This document shows positions 2,951 to 20,084 of a stretch of DNA of 64,000 nucleotides, piece after piece (the stretch's first letter is position 1; each line of letters starts with the position of its first letter). Origin of the DNA: Escherichia coli (lineage in GTDB: Bacteria; Pseudomonadota; Gammaproteobacteria; Enterobacterales; Enterobacteriaceae). The notes beneath the pieces were generated by a model, which ran no database searches, had not been told where the DNA came from, and saw only the letters and a program-made list of their open reading frames with translations. The position numbers and the translations under genes are program-made. The DNA is taken from assembly GCF_003019035.1 (NCBI RefSeq), contig NZ_CP027447.1; one strand, 5' to 3'.

Positions 2951-4489
2951 TCAGAACAGCCCCAACGGTTTATCCGAGTAGCTCACCAGCAGGCACTTGG
3001 TTTGCTGGTAATGCTCAAGCATCATCTTATGGGTTTCGCGTCCGATGCCCGACTGTTTGTAGCCGCCAAACGCCGCATGTGCCGGGTAAGCGTGATAACA
3101 GTTGGTCCACACGCGCCCGGCCTGAATGCCGCGCCCCATCTTATAGGCCAGATTACCGTTGCGGCTCCAGACACCCGCGCCCAGGCCATATTGCGTGTCG
3201 TTCGCCAGCTCCAGCGCTTCTTCCATAGTTTTGAAGGTGGTCACCGCCAGCACCGGACCAAAAATTTCTTCCTGGAACACGCGCATATTATTCTGACCAA
3301 ACAGAATCGTCGGTTCGAGGTAGTAGCCGTCTTTCAGTTCGCCTTCCAGCAGCTTGCGCCGCCCGCCGGTGAGCACGTCTGCGCCCTCTTTTTTACCAAT
3401 ATCAATGTAGTTGAGGATGGTTTCCAATTGCCCGTGCGAAACCTGCGCCCCCATTTGCGTCACGCTGTCGAGCGGGTTACCGCTACGAATGCTTTCGACA
3501 CGGCGGATGGCGCGTTCCATAAAGCGTTCGTAGATAGACTCCTGCACTAAAGCACGGCTTGGACAGGTGCAAACTTCGCCCTGGTTAAAGGCAAACAGTG
3601 CAAAGCCTTCCAGCGCTTTATCGAAAAAGGCATCTTCTTCATCCATCACATCAGCAAAGAAGATATTTGGCGACTTGCCGCCCAGTTCCAGGGTTACCGG
3701 AATAATATTTTGCGTGGCGTACTGCATAATTTGTTGGCCCACTTCCGTTGATCCGGTAAACGCCACTTTGGCGATGCGTTTCGAGGTCGCCAGATATTCG
3801 CCAATTTCCCCACCAGCGCCGTTAACCACGTTCACCACGCCCGGCGGCAGTAAATCACCGACGATTTCCATTAGCAGCAGTACAGAAAGCGGGGTAAGAC
3901 GTGCGGGTTTCAGCACCACACAGTTGCCCGCCGCCAGCGCGGGAGCCATTTTCCAGCTCGCCATCAGCAGCGGGAAGTTCCACGGAATAATCTGCCCCAC
4001 CACGCCTAACGGTTCGTGGAAGTGATAAGCCACAGTTTCGCTATCCACTTCACTAATACCGCCTTCCTGTGCCCGGATACACGAGGCGAAATAGCGGAAA
4101 TGGTCAATCGCCAGCGGTACATCAGCAGCACTGGTTTCGCGAATGGGTTTGCCGTTATCCCAGGTTTCAGCCGTCGCTAACAGTTCAAGGTTTTGTTCCA
4201 TTCGATCGGCAATCTTAAACAGAATTGCCGCGCGATCCTGCACCGAGGTATGTGCCCATTTATCTTTCACTTTATGCGCGGCATCCAGCGCCAAATCGAT
4301 GTCTCGTTTGCCCGAAGACGCCACTTCGCACAGCAGCTGCCCGGTCACCGGCGTCAGGTTCTGGTAATACTCGCCGTCGGCAGGGGCTACCCACTCGCCG
4401 CCGATAAAGTTGTCATAACGGGCTTTTAACTTAAGAGGAAAACCATACTCGCCGGGCTTAATCTGTGCTGAAGGGGGATTATTGGTCAT
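2951..4489 (-). CDS. aldB: Aldehyde dehydrogenase B
   Basis: 512 aa counted from [34 protein letters not shown]. Aldehyde dehydrogenase motifs are present ([23 protein letters not shown]). The 30-codon upstream extension in the ORF track was rejected. Confidence 0.95.
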
Positions 4490-4596
4490 GATCGTCTCCT
4501 TGCGGTGTGAGGTATAACAAGGGTAGACGTGACTGGCGAAATCTTCGCCAGTCGATAACAGCTTTACGACGGCTATCACGAATTTACGGGCAAGGG

Positions 4597-5892
4597 TTAC
4601 AGCGGATAATGCGCGAAGTACACGGCTTGCTGGTCATTAATTTTCTTCTCTTGCGCAAACCCTTCTTTAACAATTGTCCGTAAATCAGCTCGAGCCGTAT
4701 TATCAGAGACGCCCAGGCTCGCGCTAATTTCAGCAACTGTGTACTCTTTCCCCGGATTGGCGAGCATCACATTCAGGAGCGTTACCTGGCGCGGATTCAG
4801 GCGTTTAAGCACACCAGAGCTAAACAGCACACTATCGAGTTTTGCGCTTCGTTGTGTAATTTCATCGATATGCTGCTGCCAGTTTTGCAGAGCACGTTTA
4901 ATGACACCCGCCTGATATTCAAGGAAATAAGTCAGATCCATACCATCTGATTCAGTGTACTGGTAGCTGGCGGCATATTTGACCGGTGCAGCATGAAGCA
5001 AACGGCTGATGGAAATATATTTAAAGACATCGTAGCCCGATTTCAGCATATACCAGTAAAACAGCGCCCGACTGGTGCGCCCGTTGCCATCCCGAAACGG
5101 ATGTTCATGGGCCAGCATAAAATGCAGAATGCAGGCACGGACCAACGGATGAATATACCCTTCATGGCTGTTTAACCACTGGCAAACTTTTTCCAGCCGT
5201 TCCGGTAACAATGCCGCAGCGGGCGGTTGATGCACTATACTGCCATCATAGTCGGCGATCACAACATCATCTGTTTCACGAAATTCTCCCGGACGATATT
5301 TCGCGTCATTGATTCCACCCATACCAATGGCATGTAACTGGCGAATAAGCGCAGGTGTCAGCGGTTCTGCGAGTAAGTGCGGAATTTCCGCCATCAGCCG
5401 GGCATTTCCCGCAATCATATGCTCGTCTTCAGTGCGTGGCGACCGCCCTGTTTCCAGCATTTTTCTCGCCACCAGCGTTGTAGTATTCGCACCCTCCAGC
5501 TGGGAGCTGGTGATCGGCTCTTCCAGGCGTAACTGGCTTAACTCGGCTCCGGCCCCGCGTAACCGTTCAGTCTGATCTTTCAGCGCCAGCGCGGTAGCAC
5601 GTTTGTCGACAAGCTCGCACGCTTCTGCAATCACCGGGGTAATGTTGAATCCGGCCTGTTCACCCGCTTCATTGCAATAATTAATTCGTTGGATCGCCGC
5701 GTTGCGCGCCAGACGGGTAAGCGTCCACGCCACATCGACGTTTTCTCCTTTTTTGATGCGGTACTGCAACTCATCAAAAGGCAGATAACGTCCTTTTTCA
5801 TCGGTAACCCGGTTAAAGCGCAGGTGGGCCAGGAGTTCCTCACCCGATAAGTGTGATAAAGGAATAAGTCCGGGAGGTGATTTGATAGCCAT
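4597..5892 (-). CDS. Fic-domain protein (putative AMPylase) with N-terminal inhibitory-helix motif and C-terminal winged-helix-like domain
   Basis: The canonical Fic motif [12 protein letters not shown] lies at about residues 263-274. An (S/T)xxxE(G/N) motif, SSQLEG, lies at about residues 129-134, as in class II autoinhibited Fic proteins. The C-terminal segment [28 protein letters not shown] looks HTH-like. Confidence 0.85.
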
Positions 5893-5897
5893 GTGCT

Positions 5898-5976
5898 TAT
5901 CTCAAAAAAGCGCAATATTGAGATAGTGTATAGCAGGAAAGAGAAACTATCTCAAAAAAAGCAAGTTTTGAGATAG
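5898..5976 (-). promoter_or_regulatory. Twin palindromes in the fic leader with a putative sigma70 promoter between them
   Basis: TATCTCAA-N12-TTGAGATA lies at 5898..5925 and CTATCTCAAAA-N8-TTTTGAGATAG at 5947..5976. On the minus strand, TTGAGA (5950..5955), a 17-nt spacer and TATACA (5927..5932) resemble -35/-10 elements. The proximal palindrome also covers the GAGA Shine-Dalgarno-like sequence. Confidence 0.4.
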
Positions 5977-5979
5977 TTG

Positions 5980-6006
5980 AAAAAGCGGCTGACAACTCGC
6001 CAGCCG
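5980..6006 (-). terminator. Rho-independent terminator downstream of yiaY
   Basis: On the minus strand, CGGCUG-(9 nt loop)-CAGCCG is followed by CUUUUUC, 15 nt after the yiaY stop. Confidence 0.6.
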
Positions 6007-6021
6007 TTGTGGGAATGATGA

Positions 6022-7173
6022 TTACATTGCGGCGCGATAAATCGCCACAATTTCTTCGTGAGTTGCCTGGATCGGGTTAGTAAAGCCACAGGCATCTTTC
6101 AGGGCATTAGTCGCCAGTACCGTGAAATCTTCTTCTTTCACGTTCAGATCGCGTAGGCCTGCCGGGATATCCACTTTCTTCGCCAGTTCACGGATGGCGT
6201 TAATGCAGGCTTCAGCCCCTTCCGCGTCATTTTTGCCTGTCACGTTCACGCCCATAGCAGCAGCACAGTCACGCAGACGCGCAGCGGCGACTTTGCTGTT
6301 GAATACCTGAACATGCGGCAGCAGAACAGCATTACATACACCGTGTGGCAGGTTGTAGAAACCGCCCAGCTGGTGCGCCATCGCATGAACATAACCCAGA
6401 GAAGCATTATTGAACGCCATACCGGCGAGGAACTGGGCATAAGCCATTGCTTCACGCGCTTTAGCATTGCTGCCATCTTCAACGGCTAACGGCAGATTTT
6501 CGGCAATCATGGTCACCGCTTTCAGTGCGCAAGCGTCAGTGATCGGCGTGGCGGCAATAGAAACATACGCTTCGATAGCGTGCGTTAAGGCATCCATACC
6601 CGTTGCGGCGGTCAGTGACTTCGGCATACCGATCATCAGAGAGGAGTCATTGACAGAAAGCAACGGAGTTACATGTTTATCAACAATCGCCATTTTGATA
6701 TGACGCGCTTCGTCAGTGATGATGCAGAAACGGGTCATTTCAGAGGCCGTACCCGCCGTGGTATTGATGGCGATCATCGGCAGCTGCGGTTTTGCAGAGC
6801 GGTCAACGCCTTCGTAATCGCGAATATCGCCGCCATTGGCTGCCACCAGCGCAATACCTTTTGCGCAGTCGTGCGGAGAACCACCGCCTAAGGAGATCAC
6901 GCTATCGCAATTATTTTCTTTAAGTAATTTCAAACCTGCGGCGACGTTTTCCGTGGTGGGGTTAGGTTGGGTGCCATCATAAATAACGCTAAAAATATTG
7001 CGTTCTTCCAGTGCTTTTTGCACATCACCCGCCATACCCAATTTCGTTAACATATTGTCGGTGACAATTAAGGTACGGGTAAATCCATAATCTGCCATCA
7101 TATTCATTGCATCATTCAATGAATCAGCACCAATAACATTCACGGAAGGAATAAAAAAGGTTGAAGCTGCCAT
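6022..7173 (-). CDS. yiaY: Iron-containing (group III) alcohol dehydrogenase YiaY
   Basis: 383 aa, [19 protein letters not shown].... It has Fe-ADH motifs ([11 protein letters not shown], and HAMAHQLGG with metal-binding His residues). Its position between aldB and selB matches K-12. Confidence 0.9.
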
Positions 7174-7261
7174 AACACACTCCTGAAAGTGTAAAAAAGG
7201 GCGGGCAGCTTACTGAGGATTTTCATTTGAAAATATGATCAACATTACCGTTTATTAAAAT

Positions 7262-7302
7262 ATTTTTAATAAAAAGCACGTTACATTCATCAAATAACGT
7301 GC
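7262..7302 (-). terminator. Rho-independent terminator downstream of selB
   Basis: Stem GCACGTTA (7276..7283) pairs with TAACGTGC (7295..7302). On the minus strand it is followed by UUUUUAUUAAAAAUA. Confidence 0.65.
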
Positions 7303-7363
7303 CTTCTTAACATTAATAAGAAATTTTGTATTAATTCATATTTATTATGAATTAATCATTTCC

Positions 7364-9208
7364 TTATTTTTCCGGAAATAATAATGCGTCGCGCAATAAA
7401 TGATCATTTCCACGACGACGCGTAAAGCCAATGCGGTCAAAATATTCCAGAATCTGAATTGCCAGCTTTCGGCCTACGCCTAAGCGATCGCGGAAATCCG
7501 CCGCGCAGGTTGAACCACACTCCTGATCGAGATCGCGGATCATATTGGCAAATTCGACAATCCGATCGTTACGGTAATAACGATCTTTAACGATCGCGGT
7601 AATTATCCCCTGCTGCGCCGCCTGGCGTAGAGTCAGGCGCATTGCCTGCTCGTCGGTTCCCGTCTCTTTTGCCAGATCACGCACCCACCACGGTTCGTCA
7701 CCAAACAGCGGCTCTGCTTTTTGCCAGATGGCCTGCTGCTCTTCGCTGAAGCCCGCTTTGTGATCCGGCAGATGCAGCCAGCCGTGATGACTGAGGATGT
7801 CGCCGCTTTCGCGCATCTTTTCAATCAGCAACAGTACCAGCGCTTCATCTTCCATTGGCAACGCCATACGTCGCAGACGTTCGCGCCCAGGACCAGGCTC
7901 ATCGCGATGTTGCTCATGATAAGTCGCTAATGTGTCGATAATTTTCCGCTGCCAGCGGGCGGCAACTGGCGCATTCAACAAGCTGTAACCAGCCTGAATA
8001 TAGCCAGGCTGTTGCAGCAGTTCGCGCATCCCTTCGCCGTTGAGCTGCCGTGCCCAGGCGAAATCCGCAAGGTTAACCGCGCCGCGTTCCAGATGAACAG
8101 ATAACGCATCGGCATCGCTCTGCGCCCGTGCAAGAGACGCCAGCCATTGCAGATATTCCGGCTTACGCTTACCGCGACGCGGCGGGTTAAGCATCACCAC
8201 ACGCGCCCCCGCCAGCGTGTTGCGGGCCGAGATATCGCGCAGCACTATGCGATCGTTATCCGCCAGCCACAGCGGCGTGTCGAACACCAGCTCGGCAAGG
8301 TTATCTTCCAGCAGCGAAACGCGTCCCGTAACGTGGCTGGCGGCGTGGTGAATATGCAGCGGCTGCCACTGGGTCAGCGGTGTATGGGTTTGAAGCTCAA
8401 CTATCACCCGCGTAAACGGCTCCGGCGGCGCATCGGCAAGCAACCAGTCGCCACGGTTAATCTGTTCTTTTTCCGCATCACCCGCGATGTTAAGCGCAAT
8501 ACGCTGCCCGGCATGAGCTGCATCTGTTGGCTGATTTTGCGCATGTAGCGCACGCACGCGCATCGGTTTATTTACACCAGTCAGCCAGATTGAATCGCCT
8601 ACCTTCACTTCCCCGCTTAACGCCGTACCGGTGACGACCAGCCCGGCACCTTTTACGGTAAATGCGCGGTCGATCGCGAGGCGGAAACTATGTTGGCTGG
8701 CGTGTTCGCGTTCTGGTAACTGAAGCAGATGCTCGCGCAGGGCATCAATTCCCCGACCTTCGGTTGCTGCGGTGATAAACAGTTTTGCCTCAGCAAAACC
8801 GTATTCCCGCAGCACCTCCTTTACCTGGCGTTCAACCTCATCAACACGCGCTTCGTCCACGCGATCGGCTTTGGTCAGCGCCACTGTCAGCATCGGATTA
8901 CCGGTCAGCTGCAAAATCGCCAGATGCTCACGGGTCTGTGCCATCACGCCGTCATCGCACGCCACCACCAACAGCGCGTGATCGATACCACCAACGCCCG
9001 CCAGCATGTTGGAAAGAAACTTTTCATGACCGGGTACGTCGATAAAACCAGGCACGCGACCATCCGGCTGCGGCCAGTAGGCATAGCCGAGATCGATGGT
9101 CATGCCGCGCTTTTTTTCTTCCGGCAGACGGTCGGCATTTACGCCAGTAATCGCCTGCAATAAGGTTGTTTTGCCGTGGTCAACGTGTCCGGCAGTCGCA
9201 ATAATCAT
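7364..9208 (-). CDS. selB: Selenocysteine-specific translation elongation factor SelB
   Basis: 614 aa, [22 protein letters not shown]. It has GTPase G motifs ([12 protein letters not shown]) and a long C-terminal winged-helix extension. It overlaps selA by 4 nt. Confidence 0.95.
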
Positions 9209-11530: not shown

Positions 11531-14500
11531 ATGAGCGGAAAACCGGCGGCGCGTCAGGGCGACATGACGCAGTATGGCGGTAGCATTGTTCAGGGTTCTG
11601 CCGGGGTGCGTATTGGTGCCCCCACCGGTGTGGCCTGTTCGGTGTGCCCCGGCGGGGTGACGTCCGGCCATCCGGTCAATCCGCTGCTGGGTGCAAAGGT
11701 CCTTCCCGGCGAAACCGACCTTGCCCTGCCCGCCCCGCTGCCGTTCATTCTCTCCCGCACCTACAGCAGTTACCGGACAAAAACGCCCGCGCCGGTGGGG
11801 AGCCTCGGCCCCGGCTGGAAAATGCCTGCGGATATCCGCTTACAGCTGCGCGATAACACTCTGATACTCAGTGATAACGGCGGCAGAAGCCTGTATTTTG
11901 AGCACCTGTTTCCCGGTGAGGACGGTTACAGCCGCAGCGAGTCACTCTGGCTGGTGCGCGGCGGCGTGGCGAAACTGGATGAAGGTCACCGGCTGGCCGC
12001 ACTCTGGCAGGCGCTGCCGGAAGAGCTTCGCCTGAGTCCGCATCGTTATCTGGCGACGAACAGTCCACAGGGGCCGTGGTGGGTACTCGGCTGGTGTGAG
12101 CGGGTGCCGGAGGCGGAGAAGGCCACTTCCGGCGGGACGGAACCGTCCGCTTTTCCTGATACCCTGCCGGGTTACACCGAATATGGCCGGGACAACGGCA
12201 TCCGTCTGTCTGCCGTGTGGCTGACGCACGACCCGGAATACCCGGAGAATTTACCTGCCGCGCCGCTGGTGCGCTATGGCTGGACGCCACGCGGCGAACT
12301 GGCGGTGGTGTATGACCGCAGCAATACACAGGTGCGCAGCTTTACTTACGATGATAAATACCGGGGCCGGATGGTGGCGCACCGCCGCGCGGGCCGGCCG
12401 GAAATCCGTTACCGTTACGACAGCGACGGGCGGGTGACAGAACAGCTAAACCCGGCAGGCTTAAGCTACACGTATCAGTATGAGAAAGACCGCATCACCA
12501 TCACCGACAGCCTGGACCGCCGTGAAGTGCTGCACACGCAGGGCGAAGGCGGGCTGAAGCGGGTGGTGAAAAAGGAACACGCGGACGGCAGCGTCACGCA
12601 GAGTCAGTTTGACGCGGTGGGCAGGCTTAAGGCACAGACGGATGCCGCAGGCCGGACGACTGAGTACAGCCCGGATGTGGTGACGGGACTCATCACGCGC
12701 ATCACCACGCCGGATGGCAGGGCATCGGCGTTTTACTATAACCACCACAACCAGTTAACGTCAGCCACCTGGCCTGACGGGCTGGAAATACGCCGGGAAT
12801 ATGATGAATCCGGCCGTCTGATTCAGGAAACCGCACACAACGGCGATATCACCCGCTACCGTTATGATAATCCACACAGTGACTTCCCCTGCGCAACGGA
12901 CGATGCCACCGGCAGCCGGAAAACCATGACGTGGAGCCGTTACGGTCAGTTGCTGACCGTCACTGACTGTTCCGGTTATGTAACCCGTTATGACCATGAC
13001 CGCTTCGGGCAGATGACGGCGGTGCACCGCGAGGAAGGCCTGAGCCAGTACCGCGCATACGACAGCCGTGGACAGTTAATTGCGGTGAAAGACACGCAGG
13101 GCCATGAAACGCGGTATGAATACAACGCCGCCGGTGACCTGACCGCCGTCATTGCCCCGGACGGCAGCAGAAACGGGACACAGTACGATGCGTGGGGAAA
13201 GGCCGTCCGTACCACGCAGGGCGGGCTGACCCGCAGTATGGAATACGATGCTGCAGGACGGGTCATCCGCCTGACAAACGAAAATGGCAGCCACACCACC
13301 TTCCGTTACGATGTACTCGACCGGCTGATACAGGAAACCGGCTTTGACGGCCGCGCACAGCGTTATCACCACGACCTGACCGGCAAACTTATCCGCAGCG
13401 AGGATGAGGGGCTGGTCACCCACTGGCACTATGACGAAGCAGACCGCCTCACGCAGCGCACCGTGAATGGCGAAACCGCAGAGCGGTGGCAGTATGACGA
13501 ACGCGGCTGGCTGACAGGCATCAGCCATCTCAGCGAAGGGCACCGGGTGACGGTGCATTACAGGTATGATGAGAAAGGCCGCCTGACCGGTGAGCGCCAG
13601 ACGGTGCATCACCCGCAGACGGAAGCACTGCTCTGGCAGCATGAAACCAGACATGCGTACAACGCGCAGGGGCTGGCGAACCGCTGTATACCGGACAGCC
13701 TGCCCGCCGTGGAATGGCTGACTTATGGCAGTGGTTACCTGGCAGGGATGAAGCTGGGTGACTCGCCCCTGGTGGAGTACACCCGCGACCGCCTGCACCG
13801 GGAAACGCTGCGCAGCTTCGGCCGTTATGAACTCACCACCGCTTATACCCCTGCCGGGCAGTTACAGAGCCAGCACCTGAACAGCCTGCAGTATGACCGC
13901 GATTACACCTGGAACGACAACGGCGAACTCATTCGCATCAGCAGCCCGCGCCAGACCCGGAGTTACAGCTACAGCGACTCCGGCAGGCTGACCGGCGTTC
14001 ACACCACCGCAGCGAACCTGGATATCCGCATCCCGTATGCCACGGACCCGGCAGGTAACCGCCTGCCCGACCCGGAGCTGCACCCGGACAGCACCCTCAG
14101 CATGTGGCCGGATAACCGTATCGCCCGTGACGCGCACTATCTTTACCGGTATGACCGTCACGGCAGGCTGACGGAGAAAACCGACCTCATCCCGGAAGGG
14201 GTTATCCGCACGGATGATGAGCGGACTCACCGGTACCATTACGACAGCCGGCACCGGCTGGTGCACTACACGCGGACACAATATGCAGAGCCGCTGGTCG
14301 AAAGTCGCTATCTTTACGACCCGCTGGGCCGCAGGGTGGCAAAACGGGTATGGCGACGTGAACGGGACCTGACGGGCTGGATGTCGCTGTCACGGAAACC
14401 GGAAGTGACCTGGTACGGCTGGGACGGCGACCGGCTGACCACGATACAGAACGACAGAACCCGCATCCAGACGATTTATCAGCCGGGGAGCTTCACGCCA

Positions 14501-15571
14501 CTCATCAGGGTCGAAACCGCCACCGGTGAGCTGGCGAAAACGCAGCGCCGCAGCCTGGCGGATGCGCTTCAGCAGTCCGGCGGCGAAGACGGTGGTGATG
14601 TGGTGTTCCCGCCGGTGCTGGTGCAGATGCTCGACCGGCTGGAAAGTGAAATCCTGGCTGACCGGGTGAGTGAGGAAAGCCGCCGCTGGCTGGCATCGTG
14701 CGACCTGACGGTGGCGCAGATGCAAAACCAGATGGAACCGGTGTACACGCCGGCGCGAAAAATTCACCTGTACCACTGCGACCATCGCGGCCTGCCGCTG
14801 GCGCTTGTCAGCACGGAAGGGGCAACAGCGTGGTACGCAGAATACGATGAATGGGGCAACCTGCTGAATGAAGAGAACCCGCACCAGCTGCAGCAGCTCA
14901 TCCGCCTGCCGGGTCAGCAGTATGATGAGGAGTCCGGCCTGTATTACAACCGCCACCGCTATTATGACCCGCTGCAGGGGCGGTATATCACTCAGGATCC
15001 GATTGGGCTGAAGGGGGGATGGAACCTGTATGGATATCAATTGAATCCGATATCAGACATCGACCCCCTGGGTTTATCTATGTGGGAGGATGCAAAATCG
15101 GGGGCATGTACTAATGGTCTTTGCGGCACACTATCCGCTATGATAGGTCCAGATAAGTTTGATTCTATAGATAGCACCGCATATGACGCCTTAAATAAAA
15201 TAAATAGCCAATCTATTTGCGAAGATAAAGAGTTCGCTGGTTTAATATGTAAGGATAATAGTGGCAGATATTTCTCAACAGCACCTAACCGAGGGGAAAG
15301 AAAAGGATCATATCCATTCAATAGCCCTTGCCCTAATGGTACTGAGAAAGTATCAGCTTATCATACTCATGGTGCAGATAGTCATGGAGAATATTGGGAC
15401 GAAATATTTTCAGGCAAAGATGAGAAAATAGTTAAAAGTAAAGATAACAATATCAAGTCATTTTATTTGGGCACGCCCAGTGGTAATTTTAAAGCAATAG
15501 ATAACCACGGGAAGGAAATAACAAACGGAAAAGGATTACCTAATGTCTGCAGAGTTCATGGTAATATGTAA
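11531..15571 (+). CDS. rhsA: Full-length Rhs polymorphic toxin at the rhsA locus: PAAR-like N-terminus, YD-repeat shell, DPLGL boundary, AT-rich C-terminal tip
   Basis: 1346 aa. The N-terminal [17 protein letters not shown]...GVRIG is PAAR-like. There are many YD repeats (YRYD, YEYN, YDAAGR...). The core ends [10 protein letters not shown] (DPLGL at 15062..15076). The tip from 15077..15571 shows an abrupt drop in GC. The yibF-rhs-yibA synteny defines the locus. Confidence 0.9.
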
Positions 15572-15926
15572 AAAAATATTGTTTAGGAACTGTGTCATTG
15601 TATCTTTGTTTGTTTTTACATACAACACATGGGCGCAGTGTAATAATAATATTAAAATAATGCGCAAGTATGAAAGTGAGGGTAAATATACCGTTAGAAA
15701 TTTGGTTAAAAATAAAGCTATAGCATTGGAATTAGCTGAGATATATGTTAAGAATCGTTATGGGCAGGATGCCGCAGAAGAAGAAAAACCATATAAAATC
15801 ACTGAGTTAACAACAAGTTGGGTTGTTGAAGGCACCATTCACTCAGACCAAATTGCTGGTGGGGTTTTTATTATAGAAATAGGCAAAAATGATGGGGGAA
15901 TTCTGAATTTTGGCCACGGAAAATAA
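15543..15926 (+). CDS. Rhs immunity protein candidate, YbbC-like (NTF2-fold immunity family)
   Basis: It lies immediately downstream of, and overlaps, the rhs tip. [33 protein letters not shown]...[22 protein letters not shown] closely resembles my recollection of K-12 YbbC (the rhsD-locus immunity). The N-terminus is hydrophobic. The real start may be the Met at 15558. Confidence 0.7.
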
Positions 15927-16873: not shown

Positions 16874-16900
16874 CGTGAGTTGCCTATGCACAGTGGGGTA

Positions 16901-17040
16901 TTCCCGCCGGCACGGTGCAGATGCTCGATCGGCTGGAAAGTGAAATCCTGGCTGACCGGGTGAGTGAGGAAAGCCGCCGCTGGCTGGCATCGTGCGGCCT
17001 GACGGTGGCGCAGATGAAAAAACAGATGGAACCGGTGTAC
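16901..17040 (+). pseudogene. 5' remnant of an orphan rhs core fragment, truncated by IS insertion
   Basis: Nearly identical to 14606..14746 of the main rhs (...[42 protein letters not shown]). It has no start codon or upstream core and stops abruptly at the IS left end. Confidence 0.8.
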
Positions 17041-18332
17041 CAGGGAAAGATCACGTAACGCTGCTTTTTTGTACTAAACAATTCGCATTTTATGTTTAAA
17101 AATTGAGATATTCCTCATTACCTGAAGCTGTTTTTTATTGCTTATACATGATCAAATACTCCTTACATAATTAAGGAGAACAAAATGGTACTTAAAAAAT
17201 TGATGGAACATATTTCTATTATCCCCGATTACAGACAAGCCTGGAAAGTGGAACATAAATTATCGGATATTCTACTGTTGACTATTTGCGCCGTTATTTC
17301 GGGTGCAGAAGGTTGGGAAGATATAGAGGATTTTGGGGAAACACATCTCGATTTTTTGAAGCAATATGGTGATTTTGAAAATGGTATTCCTGTTCACGAT
17401 ACCATTGCCAGAGTTGTATCCTGTATCAGTCCTGCAAAATTTCACGAGTGCTTTATTAACTGGATGCGTGACTGCCATTCTTCAGATGATAAAGGCGTCA
17501 TTGCAATTGATGGAAAAACGCTCCGGCACTCTTATGACAAGAGTCGCCGCAGGGGAGCGATTCATGTCATTAGTGCGTTCTCAACAATGCACAGTCTGGT
17601 CATCGGACAGATCAAGACGGATGAGAAATCCAATGAGATTACAGCTATCCCGGAACTTCTTAACATGCTGGATATTAAAGGAAAAATCATCACAACTGAT
17701 GCGATGGGTTGCCAGAAAGATATTGCAGAGAAGATACAAAAACAGGGAGGTGATTATTTATTCGCTGTAAAAGGAAACCAGGGGCGGCTAAATAAAGCCT
17801 TCGAGGAAAAATTTCCGCTGAAAGAATTAAATAATCCAGAGCATGACAGTTACGCAATTAGTGAAAAGAGTCACGGCAGAGAAGAAATCCGTCTTCACAT
17901 TGTCTGCGATGTCCCTGATGAACTTATTGATTTCACGTTTGAATGGAAAGGTCTGAAGAAATTATGCGTGGCAGTCTCCTTTCGGTCAATAATAGCAGAA
18001 CAAAAGAAAGAGCCCGAAATGACGGTCAGATATTATATCAGTTCTGCTGATTTAACCGCAGAGAAGTTCGCCACAGCAATCCGAAACCACTGGCACGTGG
18101 AGAATAAGCTGCACTGGCGTCTGGACGTGGTAATGAATGAAGACGACTGCAAAATAAGAAGAGGAAATGCAGCAGAATTATTTTCAGGGATACGGCACAT
18201 CGCTATTAATATTTTGACGAATGATAAGGTATTCAAGGCAGGGTTAAGACGTAAGATGCGAAAAGCAGCCATGGACAGAAAGTATCTGGCGTCAGTCCTT
18301 GCGGGGAGCGGGCTTTCGTAATCTTTCCCTGC
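17041..18332 (+). mobile_element. ISAs1-family insertion sequence (Rhs-associated H-repeat element)
   Basis: Terminal inverted repeats are CAGGGAAAGATCACGTAA (left) and TTTCGTAATCTTTCCCTG (right). A single 378-aa transposase ORF is present. It is flanked by a direct duplication of ccggtgtac (17032..17040 and 18333..18341). Confidence 0.85.
17185..18321 (+). CDS. ISAs1-family DDE transposase (H repeat-associated protein, YhhI-like)
   Basis: 378 aa, [51 protein letters not shown].... This is the typical H-repeat-associated protein N-terminus and length. The [16 protein letters not shown] and [10 protein letters not shown] motifs are present. Confidence 0.9.
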
Positions 18333-19109
18333 CCGGTGTACACGCCGGCGCGAAAAATCCACCTGTACCACTGCGACCATCGCGGCCTGCCGCTGGTGCT
18401 TATCAGCACGGAAGGGGCAACAGCGTGGTACGCAGAATATGATGAATGGGGCAACCTGCTGAATGAAGAGAACCCGCACCAGCTGCAGCAGCTCATCCGC
18501 CTGCCGGGTCAGCAGTATGATGAGGAGTCCGGCCTGTATTACAACCGCCACCGCTATTATGACCCGCTGCAGGGGCGGTATATCACTCAGGATCCAATTG
18601 GGCTGAAGGGGGGATGGAATTTTTATCAGTATCCGTTGAATCCGATAACTGATATTGACCCGTTGGGATTAGCGACCTGTTTATACAGCATAACTTTAGG
18701 TATGCTTTCATGCGTTTCAGATACGCCAAGTGATGATAATTCTTATGGTGTGCTTACTATTTCAGTCGCCTCTGATAATAATGGTAATAATATGCAATGT
18801 AAAAATAATCCTGGTTGTACACACTTACAAAATAGAGGCCCAATACCTCAAGGGGTATGGAGCTGGAATGTTAATGGTCCTGGAGCAACCAATAGAAAAC
18901 CTAATGGTATACGTTTAGTACCGTCAGCAAATACAGAAACGTATAATCGTGATGGATTTTTAACACATAGTTGTTTAAACGCTTTTGGTCCATCTTTAGG
19001 ACCTCGATTCTGTTCCGAGGGTTGTATAACTGGTTCATCTAATGACATGCAAAAATTAAATGAGCTAATATTTTCAGAGCCAGATAGCACATTAACAGTG
19101 ACGGACTAG
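18333..19109 (+). pseudogene. Orphan Rhs C-terminal module: core 3' fragment plus divergent toxin tip (Tlde1/YkuD-like motif pattern)
   Basis: 18342..about 18625 is nearly identical to 14747..about 15030 of the main rhs. DPLGL lies at 18657..18671. The AT-rich tip spans 18672..19109 and contains [11 protein letters not shown] and THS-x14-SEGCITG. There is no ribosome-binding context or ATG of its own; the ORF-track start is a GTG inside the core reading frame. Confidence 0.75.
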
Positions 19110-19113
19110 AAAT

Positions 19114-19635
19114 ATGGCAAGGTTATTAACAATTGTGCTTTTTTTCTCTATTTCTGCGAATGCAGTTACTGTAAACCAATTTCAGAGAGAGTTGGATTTG
19201 GCAGACAAGGCAATATTATGGGCACTAATATCAGCCAGTACCCAAGAGGGACGAAAAGCGTGTTCACTTAGCTATTTTTCATGTAAAGCCGCAGAGGCTG
19301 AACTCGGACTGGCATATATGGCTGCTAATGATAACAAGGCATTTCTCACATCCTTATCTAGAATAATGATGTACAAAATAGATGCTGGACTTTCCGAATC
19401 CTATACATGCTATTTATTAAGCAAGGGAAAGATCATAAGACCATATCTGAAGAATCTAAATCCACACCAACTTGTCGCTGATTGCATTGAAACTGTAAAT
19501 AAAATAAAAGATAAAAATAAAAAAATCATTGATATAGATTCAGTTAATATTTGCAATGATAATAAAAATATAAATTGGAGAGTTAATAGTACTATTGTAG
19601 CCATTGATGATTCTATAAAATGCATCGATGAATAA
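19114..19635 (+). CDS. Candidate immunity protein for the orphan tip, with Sec-type signal peptide
   Basis: It starts 4 nt after the orphan tip stop. It is 173 aa and AT-rich. The N-terminus MARLLTIVLFFSISANA|VTV has n/h/c regions and an AxA cleavage motif. I recognise no family. Confidence 0.65.
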   Translation: MARLLTIVLFFSISANAVTVNQFQRELDLADKAILWALISASTQEGRKACSLSYFSCKAAEAELGLAYMAANDNKAFLTSLSRIMMYKIDAGLSESYTCYLLSKGKIIRPYLKNLNPHQLVADCIETVNKIKDKNKKIIDIDSVNICNDNKNINWRVNSTIVAIDDSIKCIDE

Positions 19636-19796
19636 TAACTTAATTATATTTAAAAATATATTAATAACTCACTCTCCAGGAGTTTTTTTAACTTAGTGTT
19701 ATAATGAATACGATAATTAAAAGTGAAGAGAAAAATAGTTGTATACATATATTCCATGAACCTACATTGTGATCTATAAATTATATATTTTTAAAT

Positions 19797-20084
19797 GTGA
19801 CTGTCATCCTTCAGATAATAAAGCCATCATCGCAATAGATGGAAAAGCACTCCTGCTCTTTTTTGATTAGAGCCGTGGCAGAGGAACAACTCATATCATC
19901 ATTGCGATCTCGACAATGTATAGTCTGATCCTTCGGCAGATCAAGACGGATAAAAATCCAATGAGTTCACACTCATCCCGAACTTCTTAACATAATGGAT
20001 ATTAACGAAAAATCATCACAGCCGATGAAATAATATGCAAAAATAATTAGTCCTTGCAGGGAGCAAAGTTCCATAATCTCCCCC
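19797..20084 (+). mobile_element. Decayed, internally deleted ISAs1-family (H-repeat) remnant
   Basis: 19797..20027 aligns by eye with 17469..about 17707 of the intact IS, with many substitutions and frame disruptions. 20047..20084 aligns with the IS right end (ttagtccttgcagggagcaaagttccataatctcccc versus tcagtccttgcggggagcgggctttcgtaatctttccc). The middle part of the IS is missing. Confidence 0.7.

Follow-up and report, generated by a model that had tools for sequence, protein, structure and literature searches.

This analysis concerns the rhsA locus of Escherichia coli as it lies in a window of 64,000 nucleotides (the whole stretch of DNA that was analysed) from contig NZ_CP027447.1 of the NCBI RefSeq assembly GCF_003019035.1. 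Behind the main rhsA gene the locus holds a second, smaller toxin module. We hold with considerable confidence that this region is an orphan cassette, a displaced C-terminal piece of the rhsA polymorphic-toxin locus, in which a truncated Rhs core split by an insertion sequence (IS) leads into a toxin tip of the Tlde1/DUF2778 type, with His99 and Cys118 as putative catalytic residues, and an Imm57 immunity gene, and that the toxin would act on peptidoglycan in the periplasm. The tip and its partner gene are located as follows:

18672..19109, + strand: toxin tip of the Tlde1/DUF2778 type with an L,D-transpeptidase fold, 145 amino acids (aa) plus stop (coding 18672-19106, stop codon 19107-19109)
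18837..18854, + strand: GPIPQG motif (G56-G61), common to stand-alone Tlde1 proteins
18966..19025, + strand: catalytic segment H99-x15-S115-E-G-C118, with an insert bracketed by C101 and C114
19114..19635, + strand: Imm57-family immunity gene, 173 aa, starting 4 nt past the stop codon of the tip, with a predicted signal peptide at residues 1-17 (19114-19164)

The original prediction had placed an orphan tip of about 145 residues behind a DPLGL boundary, with a gene for a 173-aa protein 4 nt downstream, and both were found at these positions. The tip matches the Pfam family Tlde1_dom/DUF2778 (PF10908) with 33.5 bits and an E-value of 6.4e-08 (curated cut-off 30.1 bits), and the 257-aa orphan open reading frame (ORF) reaches 31.4 bits. 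Of the two profiles named in the original prediction only this one was matched, since YkuD (PF03734) gave no hit to the tip at E<=1. The tip has the YkuD fold but by sequence does not belong to YkuD. None of the nuclease, deaminase and ADP-ribosyltransferase families in Pfam matched the tip, the NCBIfam models recognised only the Rhs core and nothing in the tip or the immunity protein, and the PADLOC defence models matched neither of the two. A sequence search of the PDB with the tip profile was set aside, as its matches lay only at the Rhs DPxGL boundary of other Rhs/Tc toxins. With a broader tip profile weak YkuD matches (E 0.02-0.8) were obtained and no match to Tlde1a. Because the sequence evidence alone was too thin, a fold search was needed. 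An AlphaFold2 (AF2) model of the tip was built from 11 homologs (mean pLDDT 72.7, pTM 0.69), and its top three Foldseek matches all have the L,D-transpeptidase fold, with weak E-values, as the original prediction would have it. The exact proteins of the window are present at NCBI, where members of their clusters bear the names "DUF2778/tlde1 domain-containing protein" or "Imm57 family immunity protein".

An exhaustive HMMER search through 1.84 billion representative proteins delivered 150 relatives of the tip, and residue conservation was counted over the 94 that are near full length. The arrangement from which a YkuD/Tlde1-type active site had been proposed, a His followed after 15 residues by S-x-G-C, is present as His99 (codon 18966-18968) and S115-E-G-C118 (Cys118 codon 19023-19025) and fits the canonical L,D-transpeptidase spacing H-x14-17-[S/T]-x-G-C. 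Conservation is nearly complete at these positions: Cys118 and Gly117 are kept in 94/94 relatives, Ser115 in 93/94 and His99 in 91/94. The same residues align with "HGD..ASxGC" of small Tlde1-like proteins that stand alone and with "HG..S[KH]GC" of Bacillus subtilis YkuD. Six residues ahead of His99 stands Arg93, kept in 88/94, at a position that matches R115 of Tlde1a. In the structure paper on Tlde1a, R115 and G130, the Gly before the catalytic Cys, were tied to the binding of D-amino acids; the pair R93/G117 corresponds to them by alignment position and not by structural superposition. The GPIPxG motif, also part of the original prediction, is present as GPIPQG; its residues G56, P57, P59 and G61 are invariant in the alignment with stand-alone members and are found in 90-92 of the 94 relatives.

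The downstream gene, for which no family had been recognised at first, clearly belongs to Imm57. The Pfam profile (PF15596) is matched over positions 2-100 of 100 with 150.7 bits (E 1.4e-44, cut-off 25), and the signature D, SE, C given for the family by Zhang et al. is present as D90, S94-E95 and C99, with D90 and C99 conserved in both Imm57 alignments. The gene adjoins a toxin of the Tox-LD-peptidase type. Its product begins with MARLLTIVLFFSISANA|V, made up of a positive n-region (with Arg3), a hydrophobic core of 10 residues and the cleavage site A-N-A, and no hydrophobic or membrane segment follows. This supports the Sec-type signal peptide that had been proposed; by the same heuristic, about 25 of the 28 downstream genes in other genera encode a similar N-terminus. 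The protein contains six cysteines, five of them conserved, and its AF2 model is all-alpha with a pLDDT of 85.9.

The orphan character of the cassette follows from its anatomy, which comprises these parts:

16894..17040, + strand: orphan Rhs core, 5' piece, ending in EPVY; 93.9% identical to the main rhsA over 148 nt (blastn), frame checked by translation
17041..18332, + strand: IS of the ISAs1 family (H-repeat); Pfam DDE_Tnp_1_assoc and DDE_Tnp_1, ends read from the sequence
18333..18671, + strand: orphan Rhs core, 3' piece, ending at DPLGL; recognised by NCBIfam as RHS_core (positions 1151-1261) and Rhs_assc_core, with 94.1% identity to the main rhsA
19797..20027, + strand: fragment of a second, decayed ISAs1/H-repeat in the interval from the cassette to yibH; matches positions 428-661 of the intact IS over 234 nt with 79.5% identity

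The orphan ORF has no Rhs N-terminus and its core is reduced to 477 nt in two pieces, so that the orphan status given to it beforehand holds. This core is 93.9% identical to positions 14599-15076 of the main rhsA and, at 97.5%, even closer to the RhsA core of strain Ec73552 than to its own upstream gene. The 5' piece was severed from the remainder by the insertion of the IS, which carries terminal inverted repeats of the form CAGGGAAAGAT(C/T)ACG and is flanked by a clean target duplication of 9 bp, CCGGTGTAC, at 17032-17040 and 18333-18341. The element appears intact, with an open transposase frame of 378 aa at 17185-18321, and is annotated as "ISAs1 family transposase" in a close genome. SCU-301, a near-identical strain, carries this transposase in frameshifted form. 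At the DPLGL boundary, encoded at 18657-18671, the GC content, about 0.54-0.63 on the core side, drops to about 0.38 for the tip and the immunity gene. Such a drop is usual in Rhs tips. A truncated homologous core, a DPxGL boundary, a GC break and a tip followed by an immunity gene, that is all the features of an orphan Rhs C-terminal cassette, are therefore found together. A scan for promoters and terminators over 18200-19900 gave no more sites than shuffled controls, and one weak site on the + strand, upstream of the Imm57 gene at 19042-19071, does not count as evidence for a function. Lacking an Rhs N-terminus, and with neither a promoter nor a start of its own in evidence, the toxin part is taken to be silent. 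It could be reactivated only through homologous recombination of its core fragment with the upstream rhsA, which is the likely recombination partner.

The same tip is found far beyond E. coli. With one genome scanned per species, it occurred in 34 loci, and in Stenotrophomonas, Paraburkholderia, Solilutibacter, Pseudoxanthomonas and Luteimonas it ends ORFs of 1500-1950 codons. The search of representative proteins likewise returned proteins of 1378-1570 aa with the tip at the C-terminus. Of 28 loci in other genera, 20 have an Imm57 gene downstream of the tip. On two contigs of Amycolatopsis orientalis, of 258 and 330 bp, the final 63 residues of the tip were also met, 89% identical to E. coli; these are most likely contaminations of the assemblies with E. 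coli DNA.

Within the species, 3690 of 5426 complete E. coli genomes have a copy of the cassette, always on the chromosome. Identity to the window copy is at least 99% in 296 of the genomes and 90-95% in 3333. A chimeric query of core and tip showed the tip contiguous with a full-length core in at least six genomes, with only single-piece matches accepted (H26-H30, H35); a total of 925 genomes was rejected as inflated, because the count with the chimeric query joined nearby pieces. In Ec73552 and PE164 a RhsA of 1392 aa ends in this tip at the same selA-yibF/yibH-mtlA locus. The Ec73552 copies are 98% (tip) and 99% (intact Imm57) identical to those of the window; the PE164 tip is 96% identical and its Imm57 gene is frameshifted. 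This frameshift lies beside an intact toxin gene, which would be self-harmful if the toxin were active. The locus of the two strains (positions 3460-8164) consists of a single rhs with the Tlde1 tip and then Imm57, with no yibA, other orphans or IS. At the other extreme, the K-12 cassette (91% identity) is a pseudogene: its tip is interrupted by several frameshifts and stops, and its Imm57 has a frameshift too. SCU-301 combines a frameshifted tip with an intact Imm57, and in the window both genes are intact. This set of alleles agrees with the C-terminal displacement model of Rhs evolution, by which older tips are moved downstream as new ones arrive, and on that model the Tlde1 tip would be the oldest at the locus.

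Several results weigh against the reading of the cassette as a peptidoglycan-directed Tlde1 toxin with a periplasmic inhibitor. On the side of the family assignment, the Tlde1_dom score lies only marginally above the cut-off, and the full-length Ec73552 protein stays below it with 27.2 bits. The lack of a YkuD match counts in the same direction. The AF2 model of the tip is of moderate quality and weakest at residues 37-46 and around the catalytic loop, where the 10-residue blocks over 101-120 average a pLDDT of 56-60, and the signal peptide was judged by a simple heuristic and not by SignalP. If the motif match were a coincidence, the tip could be a cytoplasmic toxin of another kind, and the marginal Pfam score would agree with this, as would a PDB search that returned Rhs boundaries only. 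We regard this as very improbable. The fold search clearly favours the L,D-transpeptidase fold, weak as the Foldseek E-values are; conservation of the motif residues extends through the family, and in most of the genera examined the partner carries an export signal. In addition, none of the nuclease, deaminase and ADP-ribosyltransferase families gave a match.

A second group of points concerns the state of this particular copy. Residue 35 of the tip is Asp ("ASDNNG", codon 18774-18776), at a position where 80 of the 94 relatives and the full-length allele of Ec73552 ("ASGNNG") have Gly. From the alignment, this may be a weakening substitution and perhaps the beginning of decay in an orphan that is intact otherwise, and together with the core split by the IS it suggests that the window copy may be decaying. 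One may go further and see the whole cassette as a decaying relic, in which the toxin part is irrelevant by now and Imm57, if anything, is kept as an orphan immunity gene against E. coli with a live Rhs-Tlde1. This we consider a serious possibility, somewhat short of an even chance. With the N-terminus missing and the core interrupted, only 339 nt of contiguous homology remain beside the tip; the 91% K-12-type allele, disrupted in both genes, falls within the 90-95% band of 3333 genomes; SCU-301 has lost the tip frame and kept Imm57; and the exact Imm57 protein of the window occurs on at least 1000 contigs. However, in the window the reading frame of the tip is open throughout and in phase with that of the core, no catalytic or cysteine position is lost, and live full-length versions circulate in E. 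coli, so that rescue by recombination is still possible. Moreover, the relic explanation speaks to the present activity of this copy and not to the identity of the element, which we continue to read as a displaced Tlde1-Imm57 cassette.

For that cassette a mechanism can be proposed by analogy. On a full-length Rhs shell, the tip would be delivered into the periplasm of a neighbouring cell, probably by a type VI secretion system (T6SS). Delivery by T6SS is an assumption, because no T6SS genes were seen in the window and the RhsA N-terminus, in which Pfam finds DUF6531, gave no PAAR match; both results are to be added to the points above. In the target, the thiol of Cys118 would attack the mDAP3-D-Ala4 bond of stem tetrapeptides, as in Tlde1, and release tripeptides (L,D-carboxypeptidase activity) and/or stems with exchanged D-amino acids. 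Substrates for cross-linking would thereby be depleted, and cross-linking and division would be weakened. In carrier cells, Sec-exported Imm57 would bind and block the tip in the periplasm, and the Imm57 gene of the window may still protect against strains with a live version such as Ec73552. Tlde1a is toxic only in the periplasm. The literature, on the other side, gave no activity data and no experimental study for any Rhs-borne Tlde1 or any Imm57 protein.

The chemistry may also differ from that of Tlde1a. In the Rhs-borne members an insert flanked by Cys101 and Cys114 widens the distance from His to Cys to 19 residues, whereas Tlde1a has 10 and the majority of stand-alone relatives 12-14; with this different spacing, the substrate or the reaction may be different as well, which is the last of the points to be set against a plain Tlde1 mechanism. 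A tip with L,D-transpeptidase fold could, for example, cleave the Lpp-peptidoglycan link (as DpaA/LdtF), cut 3-3 cross-links or act as a pure L,D-carboxypeptidase (as Csd6/Pgp2). Stand-alone Tlde1 lacks the Cys-bracketed insert of 9-12 residues between His and SxGC, and the capping subdomain that is tied to D-amino-acid exchange has been reported only for Tlde1a, which would favour such a difference. The sequence profiles nevertheless assign the tip to Tlde1_dom rather than YkuD, and the Arg and Gly of the D-amino-acid pocket are kept, so we judge another chemistry to be rather unlikely and retain Tlde1-like cleavage as the working mechanism.

The cysteines deserve attention in this context. 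Among the 94 relatives, 81 have both C101 and C114, 1 has a single one of them and 12 have neither; for C43 and C49 the numbers are 84, 4 and 6; and C3 and C14 are both present in 79. The tip therefore likely contains, to judge from this covariation, three disulfides in addition to the catalytic thiol. Two conserved disulfides were described in the Tlde1a structure paper, and the cysteine pairs of both proteins would suit an enzyme that folds in the oxidising periplasm. It is conceivable, though we think it doubtful, that the Rhs-borne clade forms a functionally distinct branch of Tlde1. The cysteine-bracketed insert and the two further cysteine pairs could mean that the toxin folds only after oxidation in the target periplasm and depends on the DsbA of its victim, the insert could provide another substrate or reaction (e.g. 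cleavage of Lpp-peptidoglycan or of 3-3 cross-links), and Imm57 could represent a previously unsolved small helical-repeat inhibitor fold.

The best characterised counterpart is Tlde1a of Salmonella Typhimurium (STM14_0336; PDB 7UMA), together with the other T6SS effectors of the Tlde1/DUF2778 family. The tip of the window has in common with them the Pfam domain, the L,D-transpeptidase fold, the putative catalytic His and Cys in H...[S/T]xGC, the conserved Arg and Gly, cysteine pairs and a partner that is predicted to be periplasmic, and with the stand-alone members also the GPIPxG and KNNP motifs. It differs from Tlde1a by its fusion to an Rhs core, by the longer stretch from His to Cys and by an additional N-terminal beta-hairpin with the C3/C14 pair. 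The immunity proteins differ as well, the one in the window being an all-alpha Imm57 and that of Tlde1a belonging to DUF2195/Tldi1a. From the housekeeping YkuD L,D-transpeptidases (LdtMt2/5, Ldtfm, YkuD, Csd6, Pgp2, DpaA) the tip is set apart by the missing Pfam YkuD match, by the absence of peptidoglycan-binding domains (LysM, PG_binding) and by its toxin context with a dedicated immunity gene. As to the cassette form, the Salmonella rhs-orphan and the E. coli K-12 yibJ-yibG and yibS/yibW-yibV remnant at rhsA are presumably orphan Rhs modules of the same kind. They share with the window a 5'-truncated core with tip and immunity gene downstream of a main rhs, the GC drop at DPxGL and a possible activation by recombination with the main gene, whereas the K-12 copy of this very cassette is a pseudogene and the window copy is intact in both genes.

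The cargo had been taken for an unusual one, and this view has to be corrected, as the pairing of an RHS-linked L,D-peptidase with Imm57 is already known. Zhang et al. 2012 (PMC3482391) described Tox-LD-peptidase toxins with RHS repeats, listed Imm16 and Imm57 as their immunity families and distinguished such toxins by the RHS architecture and the linked immunity genes. In the preprint of Sibinelli-Sousa et al. 2020, where Tlde1 was still called Tae5, the Shigella sonnei Rhs-DUF2778 protein WP_052983304.1 is named, Rhs fusions are counted in 11% of the genomes of one subfamily and mainly in Tae7/Tlde1c, and the link to Imm57 is cited. The window agrees with these toxins and fusions, known from gamma- and beta-proteobacteria, in the Rhs scaffold, the L,D-peptidase tip and the Imm57 neighbour, and differs in being an orphan interrupted by an IS. 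With these two sources and the NCBI cluster names, the finding is correct but not new.

The surroundings of the cassette are those of the E. coli rhsA locus, in the order rhsA, a small immunity gene, yibA, the orphan cassette, yibH and yibI (both on the minus strand) and mtlA. The genes upstream of the cassette are:

11531..15571, + strand: main full-length rhsA, 1346 aa, with a DUF4329 tip (Pfam RHS_repeat x10, DUF6531, RHS, DUF4329)
15543..15926: gene of 127 aa that overlaps rhsA and encodes an Imm-NTF2-2 immunity protein, named yhhH in the annotation of a close genome
16016..16873: yibA (HEAT)

The DUF4329 tip of the main rhsA matches its Pfam family with an E-value of 1.4e-38 (window 15076-15926). 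In K-12 the Imm-NTF2-2/yhhH gene is absent between rhsA and yibA, and for this reason the live tip and immunity pair of the strain is unlike the K-12 arrangement. Across strains, this one rhs locus has three different helical-repeat proteins in the position of an immunity gene: yibA (HEAT), yibG (Sel1; K-12 locus 8362-8823) and Imm57, which is HEAT/ARM-like as modelled.

The main lesson of the analysis is that a reader with nothing but sequence at hand can get from a motif to a real toxin family. For the biology of E. coli, the locus offers a series at a single chromosomal site, from the live full-length form in Ec73552 through the intact orphan of the window to the pseudogene of K-12. This series could serve to follow the displacement, storage and loss of Rhs tips, and to see whether the immunity gene of an orphan protects within the species.

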